Source of the DNA: an uncultured Flavobacterium sp.
GTDB taxonomy: Bacteria; Bacteroidota; Bacteroidia; Flavobacteriales; Flavobacteriaceae
Length of the DNA stretch: 64,000 bases
Assembly (NCBI GenBank): GCA_937876455.1
Contig: CALFIG010000254.1
Span: 351 to 64,350, forward strand
Direction: 5' to 3'
Below the pieces are notes generated by a model, which did not search any database, had not been told where the DNA came from, and worked only from the letters and a program-made list of their open reading frames with translations. How positions within the stretch are numbered: the stretch's first letter is position 1; the number at the start of each line of letters is the position of its first letter. Made by a program: the position numbers and the translations under genes. This document shows, one piece after another, positions 15,339 to 25,192 of this stretch.

Positions 15339-15941
15339 ATGCAATTCGACATTCAAAACACCGAATCTTCGGCTTTATATAAATTATTGACAGGAACTGT
15401 CATTCCAAGACCTATCGCTTGGGTAGCCACTATTGATGAAAATGGAATTGATAATTTGGCTCCGTTTTCCTTTTTTAATGTCGTTAGTGAGGACCCGCCT
15501 CACATTATGTTTTCAACTGTTCGAACGGGAAATAAAAATAAAGACACGTTAAATAATATTCTCGCCAATCAGCAATTTGTAGTCAATTTAGTTACGGAAG
15601 ATGTTGTAGAACAAATGAATACTACTGCACAATCCGTTGCGGCTGATGTCAATGAATTTGAATTAGCAAACGTAACACCAATAGAATCCATTTACATCAA
15701 ACCAAAACGAGTAAAAGAAAGTTTGGTGCAATTTGAATGCGAAATGGTACATCATTATTTTATCGAAAAGCATCAAAAGGGAGGCGCTTGTATTATCATT
15801 GGAAAAATTATTACCATGCATATTGACGATTCAATTTTGATGGAAAATCATAAAATCAATTTAGAAAAATACAAACCTGTTGCGCGTTTAGCAGGTTCAA
15901 ATTATAGTAAATTAGGAGAAATATTCTCCATTAAAAGATAA
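15339..15941 (+). CDS. Flavin reductase-like FMN-binding protein
   Basis: PRPIAWVAT...NLAPFSFFN...KDTLNNI...FVVNLV and C-terminal ARLAGSNY pattern. Confidence 0.9.
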   Translation: MQFDIQNTESSALYKLLTGTVIPRPIAWVATIDENGIDNLAPFSFFNVVSEDPPHIMFSTVRTGNKNKDTLNNILANQQFVVNLVTEDVVEQMNTTAQSVAADVNEFELANVTPIESIYIKPKRVKESLVQFECEMVHHYFIEKHQKGGACIIIGKIITMHIDDSILMENHKINLEKYKPVARLAGSNYSKLGEIFSIKR

Positions 15942-15981: not shown

Positions 15982-18360
15982 ATGAAAATAACAGTTATAG
16001 GTGGTGGTCCAGGCGGACTTTACTTTTCGATATTAACCAAAAAAGCAATGCCACATTGCCAAATCGATATATACGAAAGAAACAAACCCGATGATAGTTT
16101 TGGATTTGGGGTAGTGTTTTCAGATGAAACCTTAGGCGAATTTTTAAAACGCGATATGCAATCGTATGAGTTAATCCGAAGTAAATTTGCGTATTGGGAC
16201 GATATTGTAGTAGCTCGAGATGGTGAAGAAGTAAGTATTGCTGGAAATGGTTTTTGTGGCTGTTCTCGTAAAACGCTCCTCCAATTGCTACAACAACGTT
16301 GTGTAGAAGAAGGTGTAAATTTGCATTTTGAACAAAATGTAGAGGATTTATCGCAATTCGAGGATTCAGATATAATTTTAGCTTCTGATGGAATTGCAAG
16401 TGCTATTCGTACAAAATACCAACAAGAATTCGGAACGAAAATTGAAGTAAAGAAAAACCGATTCGTTTGGTTAGGCTCAACAAAACCGCTTGACGCATTT
16501 ACCTATTTTTTTAGAAGTACACCGCATGGAACGATTGTTGCTCATACCTATCAATACGAAGAAGGCATGAGTACTTGGATTTTTGAATGTAGTGACGAAA
16601 CATGGCAAAAACATGGTTTTGAAGTAACAAATGAAGCAGATACGATGGCAAAAATCGCTGAAATTTTCAAAGAGGAATTAGACGGTCATCCGTTAATTTC
16701 CAATAAATCGCATTGGCGTCAATTTCCGCATGTTACAAATGAAAAGTGGCATCATAACAACATCGTTTTATTAGGCGATGCCAAAGCCACAGCTCATTAT
16801 TCTATTGGTTCAGGAACAAAATTAGCCATGGATTGTGCCATTGGTTTATCGGATGCCGTAATAGCCAATCCAACTAATGTGCAAGCTGCTTTTGAACACT
16901 ACGAAAAAACCCGAAGAAATACGGTAGAAATGATTCAATATGCTGCAGTCGTTTCTTTAGATTGGTTTGAAAATATGGATCGTCATATGCAACATTCGTT
17001 TCAGCAATTTGCATTTGGTTGCATGACGCGTTCTAAAAAAGTAACGTATGAAAATTTACGCTTAAGAGATAGTTCTTTTACTGATAAGGTTTTAGCAGAA
17101 TTTTTATCTTCGAGAACCTCAGATAATAATTTTAGCAAAAGTGTGTTGCCAGAGGCACTCGAAGCCAACAGTTCAAATCAAAAAGCGTTGCCAGAGGCTC
17201 TCGAAAGCAAAAGTGCTGCGTTTTCAAAATTTAAACTAAGAAATATAGAATTACAAAATCGTATCGTAATGTCGTCAATGGGGCAATATTTGGCCGAAAA
17301 CGGATTGGTGAACGATTGGCATTTTCAGCATTACACATCTAGAGCTGTGGGTGGTTTAGGATTAATTCTTGCCGAAATGACAGCTGTTTCTGACACAGGA
17401 AGAATTACAGAAGGTTGCGCAGGAATTTATACCGAAAATCAAGTAAACGCTTGGAAACGAATTACTGATTTTATTCACAAATATACCCAAACTAAAATCG
17501 GAATTCAAATAGGGCATTCAGGAAGAAAAGGTTGTTCAAAAATTCCTTGGGAAGACAAATTTCAGAGTAAAAAATGGGAGTTACTTTCGGCTTCTGCTAT
17601 TCCGTTTAATGAAAATCTAAATCCCGAAACTTCGGGGCCGAAAGAGATGACTTTAGCAGATATGCAATTGGTTAAAAGTCAATTCGTTCAAGCAGCTAAA
17701 AATGCAGACGAAGCTGGTTTTGATATGATTGAATTACAAGCGCATCATGGCTTTTTATTGGCATCTTTTTTGTCGCCATTGACTAATATTCGTACCGATG
17801 AATTTGGAGGAAGTGTTCAAAATCGATTAAAATATCCATTAGAGGTTTTTACCGCCATTCGGGAAGTATTTCCAAAAGAAAAACCAATTTCAGTTCGAAT
17901 TTCAGCAACCGATTGGGCAGAAAACGGAATTTCAGAACAAGATGTTTTGGTAATTTCTAAAGCGTTTAAACAGGCAGGTGCCGATATAATTAATGTTTCT
18001 ACAGGAAATACCGTGGCGCACCAAAAACCAATTACAGGAAGAATGTGGCAAACGCCTTTTTCAGATACGGTTCGAAATACCGTTAATATTCCAACAATTA
18101 CCGCAGGAACAATTCAAGATATCGACCAAATTAACACCATTCTTTTAAACGGAAGAGCCGATTTAGTAGCGCTAGGTCGACCTTTATTGTTAGATACTAA
18201 TTTTGTGAGAAATGCGCAAGCGTATGAACAATTTCAAGCAAATGATATTCCAAATCCATACAAAATGGGTGTTTCGCATTTGTATCCACTAAAAGCTTCA
18301 GAACGAAAACAAGCAGAAGGTATGAAAAAAGCATTGAAACCGAAAAGCAATAAATTATAA
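15982..18360 (+). CDS. Bifunctional salicylyl-CoA 5-hydroxylase / anthraniloyl-CoA monooxygenase-like protein (FAD monooxygenase fused to an OYE-like domain)
   Basis: GGGPGGLY, FGFGVVFSD and LLGDAKATAHYSIGSGTKLA in the N-domain. The C-domain is an old-yellow-enzyme TIM barrel (NIRTDEFGGS..NRLK, GRADLVALGR). Confidence 0.9.
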   Translation: MKITVIGGGPGGLYFSILTKKAMPHCQIDIYERNKPDDSFGFGVVFSDETLGEFLKRDMQSYELIRSKFAYWDDIVVARDGEEVSIAGNGFCGCSRKTLLQLLQQRCVEEGVNLHFEQNVEDLSQFEDSDIILASDGIASAIRTKYQQEFGTKIEVKKNRFVWLGSTKPLDAFTYFFRSTPHGTIVAHTYQYEEGMSTWIFECSDETWQKHGFEVTNEADTMAKIAEIFKEELDGHPLISNKSHWRQFPHVTNEKWHHNNIVLLGDAKATAHYSIGSGTKLAMDCAIGLSDAVIANPTNVQAAFEHYEKTRRNTVEMIQYAAVVSLDWFENMDRHMQHSFQQFAFGCMTRSKKVTYENLRLRDSSFTDKVLAEFLSSRTSDNNFSKSVLPEALEANSSNQKALPEALESKSAAFSKFKLRNIELQNRIVMSSMGQYLAENGLVNDWHFQHYTSRAVGGLGLILAEMTAVSDTGRITEGCAGIYTENQVNAWKRITDFIHKYTQTKIGIQIGHSGRKGCSKIPWEDKFQSKKWELLSASAIPFNENLNPETSGPKEMTLADMQLVKSQFVQAAKNADEAGFDMIELQAHHGFLLASFLSPLTNIRTDEFGGSVQNRLKYPLEVFTAIREVFPKEKPISVRISATDWAENGISEQDVLVISKAFKQAGADIINVSTGNTVAHQKPITGRMWQTPFSDTVRNTVNIPTITAGTIQDIDQINTILLNGRADLVALGRPLLLDTNFVRNAQAYEQFQANDIPNPYKMGVSHLYPLKASERKQAEGMKKALKPKSNKL
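17106..17210. repeat. Three copies of a REP-like hairpin (loop wGAGGcwCTCGAA) inside the hydroxylase coding sequence
   Basis: ATCT-TCGAGAACCTC-AGAT (17106-17124, reverse orientation), TGTTGCC-AGAGGCACTCGAA-GCCAACA (17144-17170), TTGC-CAGAGGCTCTCGAAA-GCAA (17188-17210). Confidence 0.75.
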
Positions 18361-18387: not shown

Positions 18388-18756
18388 ATGAAAAAAAATA
18401 AAATTTTTTACATCTCAATAATATTAGTTTTTGTTTGTTTTTGCATTTATTATTTTGAACCAATGCATAAGCCTGTTGAAACGTTAGATGAATTGATAGG
18501 TAAAAATTTGGATTTTGTAAATAATAAATATTTTAAATCTGAAGCAGATGAGACAATTAAAATCAACATAAATAATAACTTGAATGAATTTCAAGGAGGA
18601 ATATTAAATAAAAAATCAATATTAACAGATAGTATAGTCTATCAATATACCTGGAAATTTTTCACACACAAAAAAACAATTTGGGTTGGAAAAACAATTG
18701 AAAATAAATACCAAATAATTGATGCAATTAGATATAAAAACAATGTGAAATTTTAA
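18388..18756 (+). CDS. Hypothetical protein with N-terminal membrane anchor/signal
   Basis: 122-aa ORF beginning MKKNKIFYISIILVFVCFCIYYF. No family recognised. Confidence 0.7.
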   Translation: MKKNKIFYISIILVFVCFCIYYFEPMHKPVETLDELIGKNLDFVNNKYFKSEADETIKININNNLNEFQGGILNKKSILTDSIVYQYTWKFFTHKKTIWVGKTIENKYQIIDAIRYKNNVKF

Positions 18757-18771
18757 AATTCGTAATTAACT

Positions 18772-20352
18772 ATGAAAGATAATTTCGCTCATAAAAGTTT
18801 ACCAGCTCTGGAATTACAACCCAAATACACCTTTTTGGATTTACCACAATTCCAACAACCTGAACTATTGAATTGTGTCGATAAATTACTAGATAATCAC
18901 ATCAAAGAAGGTCGAGGAAATACCATTTGTATTCGAACCTTTGAAGAAACCTGGACATATCAGGATTTGTTTGAAAAAGCCAATCAAATGGCACATGTTT
19001 TAGTCGAAGATTTAGGGCTAGAATCAGGAAATCGCGTATTGCTGCGTTCGGCGAATAACCCAATGATGGTAGCGTGTTGGTTTGCCGTTTTAAAAGCTGG
19101 CGGAATTGTAGTAGCTACTATGCCTTTGCTTCGTTCTAAAGAATTGACTACAATTATTGATTGTGCTGAAATTTCACATGTATTGTGCGATAAGGAATTG
19201 GAAGAAGAAATACATTTAGTAAAATCGGATTTTTTTAAACAAACCTGTTTTTATGGAAATAGTCAATTGGAAAAATTAATGGCTACAAAATCAAAAGTAT
19301 TTGAAAATTATCCTTCAAAATCTGAGGATGTGGCTCTTATTGGATTTACTTCAGGCACTACAGGTTTGCCAAAAATGACAGCACATTATCACAAAGATAT
19401 TTTGAATATTTGTGAAGCATTTCCAAACTATTCGTTGCAACCTACTTCAAATGATATTTTTACAGGAAGTCCGCCCATTGGTTTTACTTTTGGTTTAGGA
19501 GGTTTGGTGTTGTTCCCCATGTATTTCGGAGCTTCCACTTTTTTAATCGAAAAACCAAGTCCAGATGTGTTGTTGAAAGCCATTCAAGAGTATAAAATCA
19601 CGATTTGTTTTACCGCTCCAACCGCTTGGCGAATGATTACCACTAAAATTCAAGAGTACGATATTTCGAGTTTACGAAAATGTGTATCTGCAGGTGAAAC
19701 ATTACCGTTAAAAGTTTGGCAAGATTGGTATGATGCCACAGGACTAAAAATTATTGATGGAATTGGCGCTACCGAAATGCTACATATTTTTATTTCGTCT
19801 AATGAAGAAAACATGAAACCCGGCGCTACAGGTAAAGCCATCACAGGTTATGAAGCTAAAATTATTGACCAACAAGGTAATGAAGTACCAAAAAATGAAG
19901 CTGGAAGACTAGCCGTTCGAGGAATTACAGGTTGTAAATACCTAAACCGAGAGGAAAAACAACGCGAATATGTCGAAAATGGATGGAATATTACAGGCGA
20001 TATTTTCCGTCAAGATGACGAAGGGTATTTTCATTTTGTTGCTCGTGGCGATGATATGATTATTTCTTCTGGTTATAATATTGCGGCAATTGAAGTAGAA
20101 TCCGTACTTTTAACTCATGAAAATATTTTAGAATGTGCCGTTGTGGGTTTACCCGATGAAGAAAGAGGCATGTTGGTTTGTGCATATATTGTTTTAAAAG
20201 AACAAGCAACGGCAGATGAAGCCTTAAAAATTCAGATTCAAAATTGGTTTAAAAACTCGGCAGCACCTTATAAATATCCAAGAGTAATTCATTTTGTGGA
20301 TTGTTTGCCAAAAACAGAAACGGGTAAAATACAACGATTTAAGCTGAAGTGA
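18772..20352 (+). CDS. Aromatic acid-CoA ligase (2-aminobenzoate/benzoate-CoA ligase family)
   Basis: AMP-binding motifs FTSGTTGLPK, SAGETLP, DGIGATEMLHIF, ITGDIF, PKTETGKIQRF. Confidence 0.9.
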   Translation: MKDNFAHKSLPALELQPKYTFLDLPQFQQPELLNCVDKLLDNHIKEGRGNTICIRTFEETWTYQDLFEKANQMAHVLVEDLGLESGNRVLLRSANNPMMVACWFAVLKAGGIVVATMPLLRSKELTTIIDCAEISHVLCDKELEEEIHLVKSDFFKQTCFYGNSQLEKLMATKSKVFENYPSKSEDVALIGFTSGTTGLPKMTAHYHKDILNICEAFPNYSLQPTSNDIFTGSPPIGFTFGLGGLVLFPMYFGASTFLIEKPSPDVLLKAIQEYKITICFTAPTAWRMITTKIQEYDISSLRKCVSAGETLPLKVWQDWYDATGLKIIDGIGATEMLHIFISSNEENMKPGATGKAITGYEAKIIDQQGNEVPKNEAGRLAVRGITGCKYLNREEKQREYVENGWNITGDIFRQDDEGYFHFVARGDDMIISSGYNIAAIEVESVLLTHENILECAVVGLPDEERGMLVCAYIVLKEQATADEALKIQIQNWFKNSAAPYKYPRVIHFVDCLPKTETGKIQRFKLK

Positions 20353-20433: not shown

Positions 20434-20853
20434 ATGAGTGAATTTATAAAACAAGAAAAAGTACGTTTCCAACATGTAGATTACGCCGGAATCGTTTTTT
20501 ATCCACGATTTTTAGAAATGCTAAATTGTTTAGTAGAAGATTGGTTTGAAGAAGCGTTAGACCGACCTTTTTCAAAAATGCACGAAACTAATGGAATCCC
20601 AACAGTTGATTTAAAAATTCAATTCAAAAATGCTGCACGCTTGGGCGAAATCTTAACCAAAAAGCTATGGGTAAAAGAACTAAAAAACTCCTCTATTATT
20701 TGTGGATTTGAGTTTGAAAACGAAAGTAATAATTTAGTTTTAGAAGGCGAAGTTACCTTAGTAAATGTAGCTTTCAACCCAGAAAGAAACGGCATCAAAG
20801 CCGAACCTTTTAATGAGGAAATGAAGAATAAAATAAAAAATTATAAATATTAA
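20434..20853 (+). CDS. Acyl-CoA thioesterase (4-hydroxybenzoyl-CoA thioesterase-like hotdog fold)
   Basis: VRFQHVDYAGIVFYPRF motif. Confidence 0.9.
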   Translation: MSEFIKQEKVRFQHVDYAGIVFYPRFLEMLNCLVEDWFEEALDRPFSKMHETNGIPTVDLKIQFKNAARLGEILTKKLWVKELKNSSIICGFEFENESNNLVLEGEVTLVNVAFNPERNGIKAEPFNEEMKNKIKNYKY

Positions 20854-20863
20854 ATTACTAAAT

Positions 20864-21226
20864 ATGAAAAGTATAGGGTTTACATTAATGTTGTTTTTTG
20901 CAATAAACTGTTTTGCTCAAAATTCAACATCACATTACAAAAAAGTATATCAATTTGATGTTCATCATCAAGATTGGGCAAAAGTTAAAACAGTGGCTAA
21001 TACATATGGGTTTATTGATAAATCTGGAAAAGAAGTTGTGCAAGCCATCTATTATAAAATTTATGATTTTGAAATTCAAAAAGACGGTAAAAAATACGCA
21101 ATGATTGAAAATGTTGCAGGAGCTTTTGGTTATATCGATGAAAACGGAAAAGAAATTGTTGAAGGGATTTATTGGAAGAAAGAAGAAGCGAATCAAAAAT
21201 TAAATTATTATTTCACTTCAAAGTAA
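20864..21226 (+). CDS. Exported WG-repeat-containing protein
   Basis: Signal peptide and two repeats, YGFIDKSGKEVV and FGYIDENGKEIV. Confidence 0.75.
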   Translation: MKSIGFTLMLFFAINCFAQNSTSHYKKVYQFDVHHQDWAKVKTVANTYGFIDKSGKEVVQAIYYKIYDFEIQKDGKKYAMIENVAGAFGYIDENGKEIVEGIYWKKEEANQKLNYYFTSK

Positions 21227-21265: not shown

Positions 21266-22249
21266 ATGACATTCAAAAAATTCAAAGCCGCTACTGTTCA
21301 AACCTCACCTGTATTTCTAAATGTAGAAAAAACAGTAGATAAAGCCATTTCTTTCATTAAAGAAGCAGCAAACAATCAGGTAAAATTAATTGCTTTTCCT
21401 GAAGTATTTATTTCTGGATATCCCTATTGGAATTGGATCATGACACCCGTTCAAGGCAGTAAATGGTATGAAACATTATATAAAAATTCGGTTGATGTAA
21501 CAGGACCTGAAATCAAGAAATTATGTTTGGCTGCTAAAGAAAACGATATTCATATTGTTATAGGAATCAATGAAAGAGGTTCTAGCTATGGCGAAATTTA
21601 CAATACCAATTTAATAATTGATAACAAAGGCGTTATCATCGGAAAACACAGAAAGTTAGTGCCTACTTGGGCCGAAAAACTGACGTGGACTTCTGGTGAT
21701 GGTTCTTCGTTAAAAGTATATGATACCGAAATAGGGCCTATTGGAACCTTAGCGTGTGGCGAAAACACCAATACATTAGCACGGTTTACGTTACTTTCTC
21801 AGGGCGAATTGATTCATATTGCGAATTACATTTCACTTCCGGTTGCACCACCAGATTATGATATGGCTGAAGCGATTAAAATTCGTGCGGCTGCACATTC
21901 TTTTGAAGGAAAATTATTTACGATTGTGTCGTGTTCCACGGTTTCTCAAGAAATCAAAGATGCTTTACGTGCAGATGTGCCAAATGTAGATGAATTATTA
22001 GACAGAAAAAGTTCAGCTTTCTCAAGTTTTATTGGTCCAAATGGCGCTGTCATCGGGCAACCTTTAATTGATGAAGAAGGAATAGTATATGCCGAAATTG
22101 ATTTAGAAAAATGCATCCAACCGAAACAAATGCACGATATTTTAGGGCATTATAACCGATTTGATATTTTCGATTTGAGAGTAAACACCGCTCCCACACG
22201 TAAAATCACGTTTATAGACAATCACGAAGAATTTAATAAAGATAAATAA
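21266..22249 (+). CDS. Nitrilase-superfamily carbon-nitrogen hydrolase
   Basis: Catalytic triad context FPEVF (Glu), HRKLVPT (Lys), LACGEN (Cys). Confidence 0.9.
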   Translation: MTFKKFKAATVQTSPVFLNVEKTVDKAISFIKEAANNQVKLIAFPEVFISGYPYWNWIMTPVQGSKWYETLYKNSVDVTGPEIKKLCLAAKENDIHIVIGINERGSSYGEIYNTNLIIDNKGVIIGKHRKLVPTWAEKLTWTSGDGSSLKVYDTEIGPIGTLACGENTNTLARFTLLSQGELIHIANYISLPVAPPDYDMAEAIKIRAAAHSFEGKLFTIVSCSTVSQEIKDALRADVPNVDELLDRKSSAFSSFIGPNGAVIGQPLIDEEGIVYAEIDLEKCIQPKQMHDILGHYNRFDIFDLRVNTAPTRKITFIDNHEEFNKDK

Positions 22250-22293: not shown

Positions 22294-23406
22294 ATGGAAA
22301 CAAATAATTTTTCAGACGACCAATATGGAAGAGCACGAGTTCAAGATTCCGAAGAATTAAAAGCCTATTATAAAGAATTGGAAACGCTTGGTGCGGGTGC
22401 TTTATGGACTGTCGCTAATGATATTGAACCTTGGGAACCTCGTTCTTCATCGATTCCTATGTTGTGGAAATACGATGATTTACGCGAATTAGTACTAAAA
22501 TCATCCGAATTAGTAACGCCCGAACAAGCAGGTCGAAGAGTTGTTTATTTAGTAAACGACAAACGTAAAGATGTTTCGGCAGCAGTGGGTTGGTTGTACA
22601 CCGGAATTCAAGTTACACGTCCGGGAGAGTTTACTTCGGCACACAGACATCGTGCTTCAGCCTTGCGTTTTATTATGGAAGGCGAAAAAGGCTATACCGT
22701 TGTAGATGGAAATAAAATTATACTTGAAGTGAACGATTTTGTCATTACTCCAAATTCTACTTGGCATGAACATGGTGTAGAAGAAGGTGGAAAAACCTGT
22801 ATTTGGCAAGATGGTTTAGATATTCCATTGGTAAATGCTTTGGAAGCGAATGATTATGCGGTTTATGATGGCAAACAAGAATTGGTAAAACCATTAAATT
22901 TTTCACCTATTACCTATGGCTGCGCAGGATTAATCCCAGCAGATAATACGTGGGATAAACCGTATTCTCCGCTATTCAAATATTCTTGGAAAAATGTTTA
23001 TCCAGCGTTATTAGAAGCTCAAAAAGTAAATGAAGTCAATCCGTATGACGGGATTTTCATGCAATATTCGAATCCGTTAACAGGCGGACATGTGATGCAA
23101 ACGATGGGAGCTGCGATGCAATTGTTACCGGCTGGTTTCAAAGGGAAAGCTCACAAACATACAGGTTCGTTTGTGTACCAATGTGCGAAAGGAAAAGGAT
23201 TTTCTATCATCAACGGACAACGTTTCGATTGGAAGGAAAGAGATATTTTCTGTGTTCCGAGTTGGGCTTGGCACGAACACCACAATTTATCCGAAACCGA
23301 AGATGCTTGTCTTTTTCAATTCAACGATTTACCAGTAATTGAGAGTTTAGGGCTTTTTCAATCAAGAGAATTAACAGAAAACAACGGACATCAGCCAATT
23401 CAATAA
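22294..23406 (+). CDS. Gentisate 1,2-dioxygenase-like bicupin ring-cleavage dioxygenase
   Basis: AHRHRASALRF and TPNSTWHEH Fe(II)-binding cupin motifs, WQDGLDIP, and a second cupin (AHKHTGS, VPSWAWHEH). Confidence 0.88.
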   Translation: METNNFSDDQYGRARVQDSEELKAYYKELETLGAGALWTVANDIEPWEPRSSSIPMLWKYDDLRELVLKSSELVTPEQAGRRVVYLVNDKRKDVSAAVGWLYTGIQVTRPGEFTSAHRHRASALRFIMEGEKGYTVVDGNKIILEVNDFVITPNSTWHEHGVEEGGKTCIWQDGLDIPLVNALEANDYAVYDGKQELVKPLNFSPITYGCAGLIPADNTWDKPYSPLFKYSWKNVYPALLEAQKVNEVNPYDGIFMQYSNPLTGGHVMQTMGAAMQLLPAGFKGKAHKHTGSFVYQCAKGKGFSIINGQRFDWKERDIFCVPSWAWHEHHNLSETEDACLFQFNDLPVIESLGLFQSRELTENNGHQPIQ

Positions 23407-23469
23407 CAATATAAAATTCAATAAAAAACGTTGCTACTTTGTAACTTAGCAACTTTGAAACATAATAAC

Positions 23470-24378
23470 ATGAAACTACTTACTTACAAAACAAAAGATA
23501 CCGAGCCACGTTTAGGCTTCATTCATAATAATCAAGTCATTGATATGGAAGATTTTGGCGATATTTCTAATTTCCCACTACCAAACGACATGTTGGAATT
23601 AATTGATATGGGCTTTGAAATTATTCCAGAAATTTCAGAACTAATTGCGGAAACGCCAGAAAATTTCTTTGAAGAAATCGCTTATGAAATGAACGAGGTT
23701 ACGATTTTAGCCCCAATCGAAAAACCAAGAAAAAACATCATTGGTATTGGGTTAAATTACACCGAACATGTTGCCGAAAGTGCTCGCACATTGGATACAA
23801 CTGGAAAGTTGCCAACAAAACCAATTATCTTTTCAAAACCACCCACAACGGTTACTGCTACCAATACCGAAATCATTAAAAACACGAAGTTGACTTCACA
23901 ATTGGATTGGGAATGTGAATTGGCGGTTGTTATTTCTAAAAAAGCAAAATATGTTGCCAAAGAAAACGCGATGGATTATGTGTTTGGTTACACCGTAATT
24001 AATGATATTTCTGCTCGCGATTGTCGTCGTGAAGGACAATGGATTGTGTCTAAAGGACAAGATACTTTTGCACCAATGGGACCTTATTTGGTTACAAAAG
24101 ACGAAATCGAAAACCCACACAATTTGAATCTATCGTTAAAAGTAAACGGAGTTGAAAAACAAAATTCCAATACAAAATTCATGTTGTTTAACATCAATGA
24201 TTTGATAGAAGATTTAAGCATCGTTTTTACTTTAGAAGCAGGAGACATTATTGCAACAGGCACGCCGGCAGGTGTTGGCGCAGGAAGGAATCCACAAGAA
24301 TGGATGCATAATGGTGATGTGGTAGAAGCTACAGTGGAAGGAATTGGAACTATAACGAATACAGTTAAAGAGATATAA
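23470..24378 (+). CDS. Fumarylacetoacetate hydrolase family protein (acylpyruvate hydrolase-like)
   Basis: IGLNYTEH, IFSKPPT, LDWECELAVVI, GYTVINDISARD, GDIIATGTPAGVG. Start placed at the ATG at 23470. Confidence 0.92.
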   Translation: MKLLTYKTKDTEPRLGFIHNNQVIDMEDFGDISNFPLPNDMLELIDMGFEIIPEISELIAETPENFFEEIAYEMNEVTILAPIEKPRKNIIGIGLNYTEHVAESARTLDTTGKLPTKPIIFSKPPTTVTATNTEIIKNTKLTSQLDWECELAVVISKKAKYVAKENAMDYVFGYTVINDISARDCRREGQWIVSKGQDTFAPMGPYLVTKDEIENPHNLNLSLKVNGVEKQNSNTKFMLFNINDLIEDLSIVFTLEAGDIIATGTPAGVGAGRNPQEWMHNGDVVEATVEGIGTITNTVKEI

Positions 24379-24445: not shown

Positions 24446-25192
24446 ATGAAATACAAAATAGGCCAAATAGTTCCATCAAGTAACGTTACGATGGAAACCG
24501 AAATACCAGCCATTTTTCGTTCACGTGAAACCATTTTACCAGAACGCTTTACCTTTCATAGCAGTAGAATGCGCATGAAAAAAGTAACCAAAGAAGAATT
24601 GGAAGCAATGGATGCAATGAGCTTAAAATGCGCACAAGAACTATCAGACGCACACGTTGATGTGATGGGTTATGCCTGTTTGGTAGCGATTATGAGTATG
24701 GGACGCGGGTATCATTGTGTGTCGGAAGTAAATTTACACCAAGAAACAGTGGCTAATGATTTTCCAACGCCAATTGTTACTTCTGCAGGCGCATTAATTA
24801 ACGGATTAAAGGTTTTGGGAGCGAAACAAATTTCGATTATTACGCCGTATATGCGACCATTAACCGATATGGTAGTGGATTATATTGAAAATCAAGGCAT
24901 CAAAGTAAAACAAAGTATCGCTTTAGAAATTCCAGATAATTTGGAAGTAGCGGCACAAAATCCAATGAATTTATTGGAAATCTACAAGCAATTGGATTTA
25001 ACAGATGTTGATGTTTTAGTCGCTTCAGCTTGTGTGCAAATGCCATCGTTGGAAGCTATTGATTTAATTCAAGCAGAATGTGGTATTCCGGTAACTTCAG
25101 CCGCAGTTTGTACCACCTATGAAATGATGAAAAAATTAGGCATTGAACCCAAATCGGCTATTGGAGGCGAATTATTAAGCGGGAAATATTAA
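24446..25192 (+). CDS. Maleate cis-trans isomerase (Asp/Glu racemase superfamily)
   Basis: IGQIVPSSNVTMETE N-terminus and the catalytic cysteine pair YACLV and SACVQMP. Confidence 0.9.
   Translation: MKYKIGQIVPSSNVTMETEIPAIFRSRETILPERFTFHSSRMRMKKVTKEELEAMDAMSLKCAQELSDAHVDVMGYACLVAIMSMGRGYHCVSEVNLHQETVANDFPTPIVTSAGALINGLKVLGAKQISIITPYMRPLTDMVVDYIENQGIKVKQSIALEIPDNLEVAAQNPMNLLEIYKQLDLTDVDVLVASACVQMPSLEAIDLIQAECGIPVTSAAVCTTYEMMKKLGIEPKSAIGGELLSGKY

Follow-up and report, generated by a model that had tools for sequence, protein, structure and literature searches.

We analysed a 64,000-nucleotide stretch of contig CALFIG010000254.1 from an uncultured Flavobacterium sp. (the window, in which all positions are counted) and, within it, a fusion gene whose product joins an aryl-coenzyme A (aryl-CoA) 5-hydroxylase to an Old Yellow Enzyme (OYE)-type C-terminal domain. 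The residues with which an OYE binds a carbonyl and donates a proton are replaced in this domain throughout the Flavobacterium clade, the gene stands beside a ring-cleavage module, and a separate Streptomyces lineage shows the same loss beside the same module. The enzyme most likely only hydroxylates its substrate; this was already put forward in the original prediction, and both the gene context and the Streptomyces lineage now lend it comparative support. The fusion gene, its domains and the positions of interest are as follows; enzymes that keep the active-site His and Tyr are called canonical (H/Y).

15982-18360, + strand: fusion gene, aryl-CoA 5-hydroxylase with OYE-like C-terminal domain, 792 amino acids (NCBIfam NF006101, Pfam and AlphaFold2 (AF2) model)
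15982-17091, + strand: VioD-like FAD monooxygenase domain, residues 1-370 (residues 1-352 match the VioD structures 3c4a and 8gqr at E 1e-46)
17092-17214, + strand: interdomain linker, residues 371-411, with a clade-variable insertion (low predicted local distance difference test (pLDDT) score, low within-clade identity)
17215-18261, + strand: OYE-like TIM-barrel domain (class III, YqjM/TsOYE-type), residues 412-760 (match to solved OYEs)
17257-17289, + strand: strand beta-1 and following loop, NRIVMSSMGQY, residues 426-436 (not diagnostic)
17731-17760, + strand: active-site segment ELQAHHGFLL, residues E584-L593, at and just after barrel strand 582-587; canonical enzymes read E-L-H-x-A-H-G-Y-L, and the changes are H586Q, A588H and Y591F
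18007-18009, + strand: N676, Gln in canonical enzymes and Glu in the Streptomyces clade, three residues past strand 669-673
18184-18186, + strand: L735, His in canonical enzymes and Gln in the Streptomyces clade, four residues past strand 728-731

The best family by far for the protein is NF006101, 'bifunctional salicylyl-CoA 5-hydroxylase/oxidoreductase' (969.3 bits over profile positions 1-762 of 768), yet the score is below the equivalog cut-off of 1078. Pfam Oxidored_FMN (PF00724) covers residues 414-746 with 225 bits against a gathering score of 27, which places the C-terminal domain in the OYE family, and residues 412-763 match the class III OYEs 8uaj, 3hf3 and YqjM (1z41) with E values from 1e-59 to 5e-76. 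A weak FAD_binding_3 match is also found by Pfam. The AF2 model of the whole protein has a pLDDT of 91 and a predicted template modelling score (pTM) of 0.89; a search of solved structures found none of a monooxygenase-OYE fusion enzyme. Concerning the linker, residues 382-408 (17125-17205) have a pLDDT below 50, the mark of predicted disorder, and no other part of the protein is conserved so little in the Flavobacterium clade (35% identity). A duplicated PEALE motif lies inside it, in the same interval (17125-17205).

The original prediction had read ELQAHHGFLL at 17731-17760, with the first His changed to Gln and the Tyr to Phe. Both coordinates and residues are exact, and HMMER agrees: its alignment with the OYE 3hf3 of Thermus scotoductus (E 7e-76) sets 'ielQahHgFll' against 'ielHmaHgYll' and 'msSmGqy' against 'msPmCqy'. 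The codons are 17737-17739 for Q586, 17743-17745 for H588, 17746-17748 for H589 and 17752-17754 for F591. In the H-x-x-H/Asn pair that binds the carbonyl, the first His is replaced by Gln586 and the second, His589, is kept; the Tyr proton donor (Tyr196 of OYE1, Tyr169 of YqjM) is replaced by Phe591, and the residue set of a competent ene-reductase is thus incomplete. A review of OYEs explains what the His pair and the Tyr do; in it the donor pair is almost universally conserved and the Tyr is universal except in one Cys case (PMC9292831).

To describe conservation we used 125 canonical homologues; they come from Pseudomonadota, Actinomycetota, Acidobacteriota and other phyla, and 173 of their positions are at least 93% conserved. 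H586 and Y591 are 100% conserved among them. The nearest homologues of the window hydroxylase all belong to Flavobacterium. Of 121 close cluster representatives (86-100% identity), 119 have ELQAHHGFLL, and so do all 11 Flavobacterium genome loci that show this region. The replacement is no chance effect, because two residues that are invariant in the canonical homologues are replaced across the Flavobacterium clade. This clade has changed nine of the 173 conserved positions, one of 81 in the monooxygenase domain versus eight of 92 in the OYE domain (H586Q, A588H, Y591F, W630F, D671N, Q676N, V708A/T and H735L). Counting instead the positions that are at least 95% conserved in 68 canonical genome loci but fixed otherwise in the Flavobacterium clade gives six of 792, five of them in the OYE domain and three in the motif itself. 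The four residues that form the signature of the dearomatising 2-aminobenzoyl-CoA monooxygenase/reductase (ACMR), H586, Y591, Q676 and H735, are all replaced in the window enzyme.

The residues expected to contact flavin mononucleotide (FMN) have a different fate: Q509, H512, R639, R725 and R733 are retained, as is H589, and by sequence the Gln after beta-3, the Arg after beta-5 and the Arg in beta-8 of OYEs correspond to Q509, R639, and R725 and R733. Within the Flavobacterium clade the OYE domain is 72% identical and the monooxygenase domain 76%, and the OYE domain of canonical clades reaches 70%. The barrel thus appears to be remodelled at its active site, not decaying. The N-terminal strand of the domain had also been taken as a sign of lost catalysis, because it reads MSSMGQY where xSPMCQY is usual. 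The residues are indeed those (IVMSSMGQY, I428-Y436, 17263-17289), but the interpretation is rejected: Ser432 is polymorphic within the clade, where the triplet around it is SSM in 88 sequences, SAM in 14, APM in 6, ASM in 6 and SPM in 5, and Gly434 is no loss because canonical homologues with an intact triad have C, A, D or G at the 'Cys' position.

The hydroxylase lies in a co-oriented operon, in the order flavin reductase, hydroxylase, ligase, thioesterase, C-N hydrolase, bicupin, fumarylacetoacetate hydrolase (FAH)-family hydrolase and maleate-isomerase-like gene. The genes around the hydroxylase are:

15339-15941, + strand: flavin reductase-like gene (PF01613, by Pfam), 40 bp upstream of the hydroxylase
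18772-20352, + strand: aryl-CoA ligase (TIGR02262 benzoate-CoA ligase family, 340 bits)
20434-20853, + strand: 4HBT-type thioesterase (Pfam 4HBT_2)
21266-22249, + strand: C-N hydrolase of the nitrilase superfamily (family profile searches)
22294-23406, + strand: gentisate 1,2-dioxygenase-like bicupin (TIGR02272, 305 bits, cut-off 442)
23431-24378, + strand: FAH-family hydrolase (Pfam FAA_hydrolase)
24446-25192, + strand: maleate-isomerase-like protein of the Asp/Glu-racemase family (Pfam Amdase)

The clustering of an aryl-CoA ligase (18772-20352) with a gentisate 1,2-dioxygenase-like gene (22294-23406) is the gene context of SdgC, the salicylyl-CoA 5-hydroxylase of Streptomyces sp. WA46. The bicupin scores below the equivalog cut-offs for gentisate and 5-aminosalicylate dioxygenases alike. 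The ligase is 50-53% identical to ligases beside canonical enzymes and 48% identical to that of the Streptomyces cluster described below, and the thioesterase gene, which is kept in both the Flavobacterium and the Streptomyces clusters, probably encodes the hydrolase of the 5-hydroxy-aryl-CoA product. The flavin reductase-like gene is present in all 13 Flavobacterium-clade loci and in the related locus L086 versus 1 of 68 canonical loci, and it is found in neither Streptomyces Gln-type cluster; no two-component monooxygenase that could be its partner is encoded in the operon. Two small open reading frames break the operon, at 18388-18756 (a membrane-anchored hypothetical protein) and at 20864-21226 (a WG-repeat protein). 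Both are unrelated to aromatic catabolism, and the corresponding clusters of Streptomyces and of L086 lack them.

We compared motif state and gene neighbourhood in 80 genome loci, chosen among more than 599 matches and fetched with 10-kb flanks: 12 belong to the Flavobacterium clade (13 with the window) and 68 do not. The latter, mostly from Pseudomonadota and 44-53% identical to the window protein, all read H-x-A-H-G-Y. The ligase, thioesterase, C-N hydrolase, bicupin, FAH-family and maleate isomerase genes are present on every Flavobacterium-clade contig that reaches far enough; gentisate dioxygenase-like and FAH-family genes are seen in 8 of 13 loci and the maleate-isomerase-like gene in 7 of 13, the remainder being cut by contig ends. 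The bicupin, FAH-family, isomerase and C-N hydrolase genes occur in none of the 68 canonical loci, which carry genes for short-chain dehydrogenases/reductases (SDR, 45 loci), RidA (42), enoyl-CoA hydratases (ECH, 40) and acyl-CoA dehydrogenases (ACAD, 35). RidA and β-oxidation-like genes, the usual company of ACMR, are found neither in the operon nor within 10 kb in any of the 13 Flavobacterium-clade loci. Among 300 sampled Actinomycetes genomes, the two loci with Gln at the first His position (G001, the search centre, and G247) both have the ring-cleavage module, which is missing from 37 of the 38 further canonical actinobacterial hydroxylase loci fetched. The expectation that Q/F enzymes stand beside cupin and maleate isomerase genes and H/Y enzymes beside β-oxidation genes was thus borne out in the 80 genome loci and the 40 actinobacterial ones.

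Two further observations concern loci of this kind. A relative of the window protein from a metagenome-assembled genome (L086, 4645-6884; 56% identity) has the same QAHHGF motif and the same full cluster; its hydroxylase is called at only 565 amino acids, the monooxygenase part looks truncated or frameshifted, and the short call may reflect an assembly flaw or a decaying copy. Also, an actinobacterial cluster type recurs in L131 (Arthrobacter Rue61a plasmid pAL1, 3081-13240) and in L083, L084, L099, L100, L103, L104, L106-L108 and L110. It consists of PaaX, RidA, an FAH-family hydrolase, a monocupin of 145-160 amino acids, acyl-CoA thioesterase II, an anthranilate-CoA ligase, a canonical ACMR and a hotdog thioesterase, contains no β-oxidation genes, and may stand for another, uncharacterised lower pathway that takes up the reduced product.

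Based on a library of representatives at 50% identity, only one other full-length lineage has Gln at the first His position. [quoted passage not shown] The Streptomyces cluster is made up of ligase, 4HBT thioesterase, hydroxylase, C-N hydrolase, bicupin, FAH-family hydrolase, Amdase and PaaX genes. The module is thus the one found in the window, whose gene set matches the Streptomyces locus L085. Identities between window and Streptomyces proteins are 62% for the C-N hydrolase, 61% for the isomerase, 58% for the bicupin, 52% for the FAH-family hydrolase, 48% for the ligase and 41% for the hydroxylase.

In the trees, the Flavobacterium clade falls on a long stem inside the canonical proteobacterial enzymes, and the Streptomyces Gln clade, also on a long stem branch, falls among actinobacterial enzymes beside a canonical Streptomyces paralogue, which sits in a PaaX-RidA-ECH-ACAD cluster of the same genomes. 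Streptomyces genomes carry both paralogues (G001, contig C84, 42450-44726 and 88931-91324; G247, contigs C18 and C24), a hint that one organism uses them for different substrates or routes. The two Gln clades were united in approximately unbiased (AU) tests of single origin. This topology is rejected with the full-length protein (delta-lnL 178, p-AU 6e-49) and with the monooxygenase domain only (delta-lnL 201, p-AU 1e-84), it is not rejected with the OYE domain only (p-AU 0.52), and the result is borderline with the OYE domain minus the 18 columns changed in the clades (delta-lnL 46, p-AU 0.051). Since trees and AU tests place the two Gln clades apart, the loss of the canonical residues appears to have arisen at least twice, and common descent with the SdgC-like Streptomyces clade is rejected by the full-length and monooxygenase-domain tests. 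With the 18 columns dropped, the OYE domain of each Gln clade returns to its own host group, and by per-domain identities it is closest to the canonical enzymes of that group; for these reasons the attraction between the two clades in the OYE domain is best read as convergence. A single Gln-type origin followed by cluster transfer, or a swap of the OYE domain, was also considered and is judged unlikely, given the full-length and monooxygenase AU tests and the per-domain identities.

The Streptomyces clade has changed 15 of the 173 conserved positions, all 15 in the OYE domain (Fisher p 5e-5), among them M433 (M433T), E465 (E465G), G511 (G511T) and W523. Five changed positions are common to both Gln clades (586, 588, 591, 676 and 735) where 0.8 would be expected (hypergeometric P 2.5e-4). 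In the AF2 model all five are at or just past the C-terminal ends of strands 582-587, 669-673 and 728-731; in TIM barrels these ends form the catalytic face, on which the convergent positions are therefore predicted to lie. A literature search for this five-residue signature or for its repeated origin found no paper describing either.

Concerning the taxonomic distribution, the fused enzyme was found in a survey of 401 Bacteroidota genomes only in the genus of the window, in 4 of 17 genomes. Cultured strains that have an orthologue include Flavobacterium anseongense AS60, Flavobacterium sp. J27 and CAU 1735. Because of this restricted distribution and the position of the clade in the tree, the data point to a horizontal acquisition of hydroxylase and ligase from a proteobacterial ACMR-type cluster, which were then joined to the ring-cleavage module shared with Streptomyces.

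Among known systems, the window enzyme resembles ACMR (AbmA, EC 1.14.13.40, of Azoarcus (Aromatoleum) evansii) and its homologue on Arthrobacter pAL1 in being a full-length fusion of a VioD-like and an OYE domain with an aryl-CoA ligase gene adjacent, and it nests in the proteobacterial ACMR-type clade. It differs in that canonical ACMR-type members keep H586, A588, Y591, Q676 and H735, which are Q, H, F, N and L in the window enzyme, and in that their genes lie beside RidA together with SDR, ECH and ACAD or with FAH-family and monocupin genes, whereas the window gene lies beside the bicupin dioxygenase module. The named canonical anchor in our comparison is the pAL1 enzyme of Arthrobacter sp. 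Rue61a (NC_009453), used in place of the AbmA sequence; it reads HAAHGY, VSTGQ and GRTHL. For the ligase beside it, activity as an anthranilate-CoA ligase has been demonstrated, and the profile of CoA esters agrees with the reduced route (PMC3534580).

With SdgC (EC 1.14.13.209) and the Streptomyces clade annotated as such, the window enzyme has in common its architecture and cluster content, and the clade likewise has Gln for the first His and has lost the Tyr; the characterised product of SdgC is aromatic gentisyl-CoA. The differences are the 41% identity, the other lineage and, on the Streptomyces side, H, Q or N instead of F at 591, the more extensive remodelling and the lack of a flavin reductase gene. 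The window enzyme would thus work like SdgC, as a convergent lineage derived from ACMR-type ancestors. The class III OYEs YqjM (1z41), TsOYE/chromate reductase (3hf3) and XenA align end to end with the window barrel and share with it the second His as well as the Gln and Arg residues that contact FMN, but they are stand-alone ene-reductases with an intact H-x-x-H-x-Y triad, and the window barrel is fused to a monooxygenase. Finally, the thiol-independent gentisate pathway of Pseudomonas alcaligenes (HbzF, then maleate isomerase) has the bicupin, FAH-family hydrolase and maleate-isomerase-like protein in common with the window, which differs in a CoA-ester route to the ring-cleavage substrate and in the extra C-N hydrolase of its module.

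The reading that we favour, with a probability of about 70%, is that the enzyme is an ortho-substituted benzoyl-CoA 5-hydroxylase that has lost hydrogenation and hands an aromatic product to ring cleavage. The N-terminal VioD-like FAD domain would hydroxylate the ring para to the 2-substituent, as in ACMR, and so convert either salicylyl-CoA to gentisyl-CoA or anthraniloyl-CoA to 5-hydroxyanthraniloyl-CoA. In published ACMR work this hydroxylation reportedly leads to a 5-oxo-cyclohexadiene CoA ester that is not aromatic and is, for an OYE site, a classic enone substrate. In canonical enzymes the OYE domain would hydrogenate this transient cyclohexadienone, with the His pair polarising the carbonyl, reduced FMN (FMNH2) giving the hydride and the Tyr the proton, and the product would be a non-aromatic CoA ester for β-oxidation-like enzymes. 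In the window enzyme, with the first His now Gln, the Tyr now Phe and the family-specific Q676 and H735 replaced, we infer that hydrogenation is slowed or abolished, since the carbonyl-binding His and the proton donor are gone; it would no longer compete, and the dienone would tautomerise back to an aromatic 5-hydroxy-aryl-CoA. The 4HBT thioesterase would free the 5-hydroxy acid, the bicupin would open its ring, the FAH-family hydrolase would split maleylpyruvate directly and the maleate isomerase would give fumarate, a route with no thiol cofactor. The retained barrel, which probably still binds FMN, would have a structural function or another one that involves no hydrogenation. As the original prediction had stated, ACMR forms re-aromatised 5-hydroxyanthraniloyl-CoA, not the reduced product, when its reduction fails, namely when NADH is limiting (PMC3534580). 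Also, salicylyl-CoA 5-hydroxylase makes gentisyl-CoA ahead of gentisate 1,2-dioxygenase, and HbzF, an FAH-family hydrolase, splits maleylpyruvate directly (PMC5658364).

Several points weigh against this reading. The OYE domain is conserved like the monooxygenase domain and keeps its FMN-binding residues, from which it follows that it does something. Tyr-to-Phe variants of several OYEs (PETN reductase, YqjM) retain substantial activity and a Gln can still form a hydrogen bond with the carbonyl; the Y-to-F and H-to-Q changes alone prove no inactivation. The OYE domain taken by itself cannot reject a single origin of the two Gln clades, with or without the 18 columns, and a sign test of the motif-context association has only two independent contrasts, with which no formal significance is reachable. 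SdgC of strain WA46 is a presumed member of the Gln clade, by annotation and by its nine-gene cluster, and its record did not turn up among the members of ten Streptomyces clusters. The motif-context rule also has its exceptions. In the actinobacterial operon L109 (3041-11975) a fully canonical H/Y enzyme is joined to module genes, with a C-N hydrolase, an FAH-family hydrolase, a luciferase-like oxidoreductase, a flavin reductase, a kynurenine-formamidase-like cyclase and an adjoining, divergent bicupin; this operon is an exception to the rule or an intermediate stage of it. Conversely, P0134 (L128, 6619-15713), from a distant clade, has a degenerate OYE barrel in a β-oxidation cluster. The barrel is heavily degraded (Tyr to Gly, FMN-contact Gln to Arg), the neighbours are RidA, ECH, SDR, ACAD, ligase and PaaX genes, and a luciferase-like oxidoreductase gene directly downstream may supply the reductase step in trans.

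A further variant stands apart from both Gln clades. The metagenomic lineage P0127 (L127, 3-1928) has N, G, T, E and L at 586, 588, 591, 676 and 735 and R639C besides, and its gene adjoins a cyclase and an amine-oxidase-like gene; it may be a third independent event, although its long branch makes the placement unsure.

The explanation that stands closest to the favoured one, and which we regard as unlikely, is that the OYE domain has been repurposed: it would bind the dienone and catalyse a redox-neutral tautomerisation to the phenol, with a new His (A588H, or Y591H in Streptomyces) as the general base, and the same aromatic product would result. Purifying selection on the domain and its retained FMN contacts are in line with such a role, as are the gain of a His within the motif in both Gln clades, the long stems of both and the concentration of their changes on the catalytic face; OYE1 is also known to catalyse aromatisation and dismutation of cyclohexenones. 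The new His, however, is at a different position in the two clades, and the dienone of ACMR re-aromatises spontaneously at low NADH, which makes a catalyst unneeded. In a related and equally speculative proposal, which we hold only tentatively, residues 586, 588, 591, 676 and 735 would form a repeatedly evolved switch between dearomatisation (H/A/Y/Q/H) and an aromatic 5-hydroxy product, and the switched-off barrel would serve, through its new His, as a flavin-bearing dienone-phenol tautomerase or in another non-hydrogenating role.

It is quite improbable that the enzyme is still a bifunctional monooxygenase/reductase, in which Gln586 and His589 polarise the carbonyl, a water molecule or another residue provides the proton, and a reduced alicyclic CoA ester is made. 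Such an enzyme would explain the intact barrel and FMN-binding residues, it would agree with the OYE Y-to-F variants that stay active, and L109 shows that a canonical enzyme can occur beside the bicupin module. The cluster, however, has no SDR, ECH, ACAD or RidA gene for an alicyclic product, its ring-cleaving dioxygenase needs an aromatic substrate, and the same positions were lost twice, in two lineages with the ring-cleavage module. Least credible of all is a decaying relic that only supports folding or dimerisation and carries out no flavin chemistry: catalytic residues are lost, the FMN-binding residues are also gone in the distant degenerate clade (P0134, P0144 and others) and the Streptomyces clade has altered M433, E465, G511 and W523 as well, but the Flavobacterium clade has changed so few of its conserved OYE positions (8 of 92), keeps Q509, H512, H589, R639, R725 and R733, and is no less conserved in this domain than canonical clades are (72% versus 70%).

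Returning to the favoured 5-hydroxylase, its substrate may be either salicylyl-CoA or anthraniloyl-CoA. The Streptomyces precedent speaks for salicylate, as does the separate canonical paralogue, linked to RidA, that Streptomyces has in addition. The conserved C-N hydrolase, the 50-53% identity of the ligase to canonical-side ligases and the cyclase of L109 speak for a nitrogen-bearing substrate such as anthranilate.

A single database name, either 'bifunctional salicylyl-CoA 5-hydroxylase/oxidoreductase' or 'anthraniloyl-CoA monooxygenase', covers enzymes of what are probably two pathways, one in which the ring is dearomatised and one in which it is kept aromatic for cleavage by a dioxygenase. 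With a short residue signature that separates the two types, enzymes could be annotated and pathways predicted more accurately, for example when root-associated bacteria are surveyed for salicylate degradation. If the reading is true, an exchange of three to five residues is predicted to turn an alicyclic CoA-ester product into an aromatic one, or the reverse. The five-position change has apparently originated twice, each time next to this ring-cleavage module, a pattern that looks like convergence with an evident functional meaning, and some Flavobacterium species would possess a CoA-dependent, thiol-independent gentisate-type route assembled from the parts of different donors.

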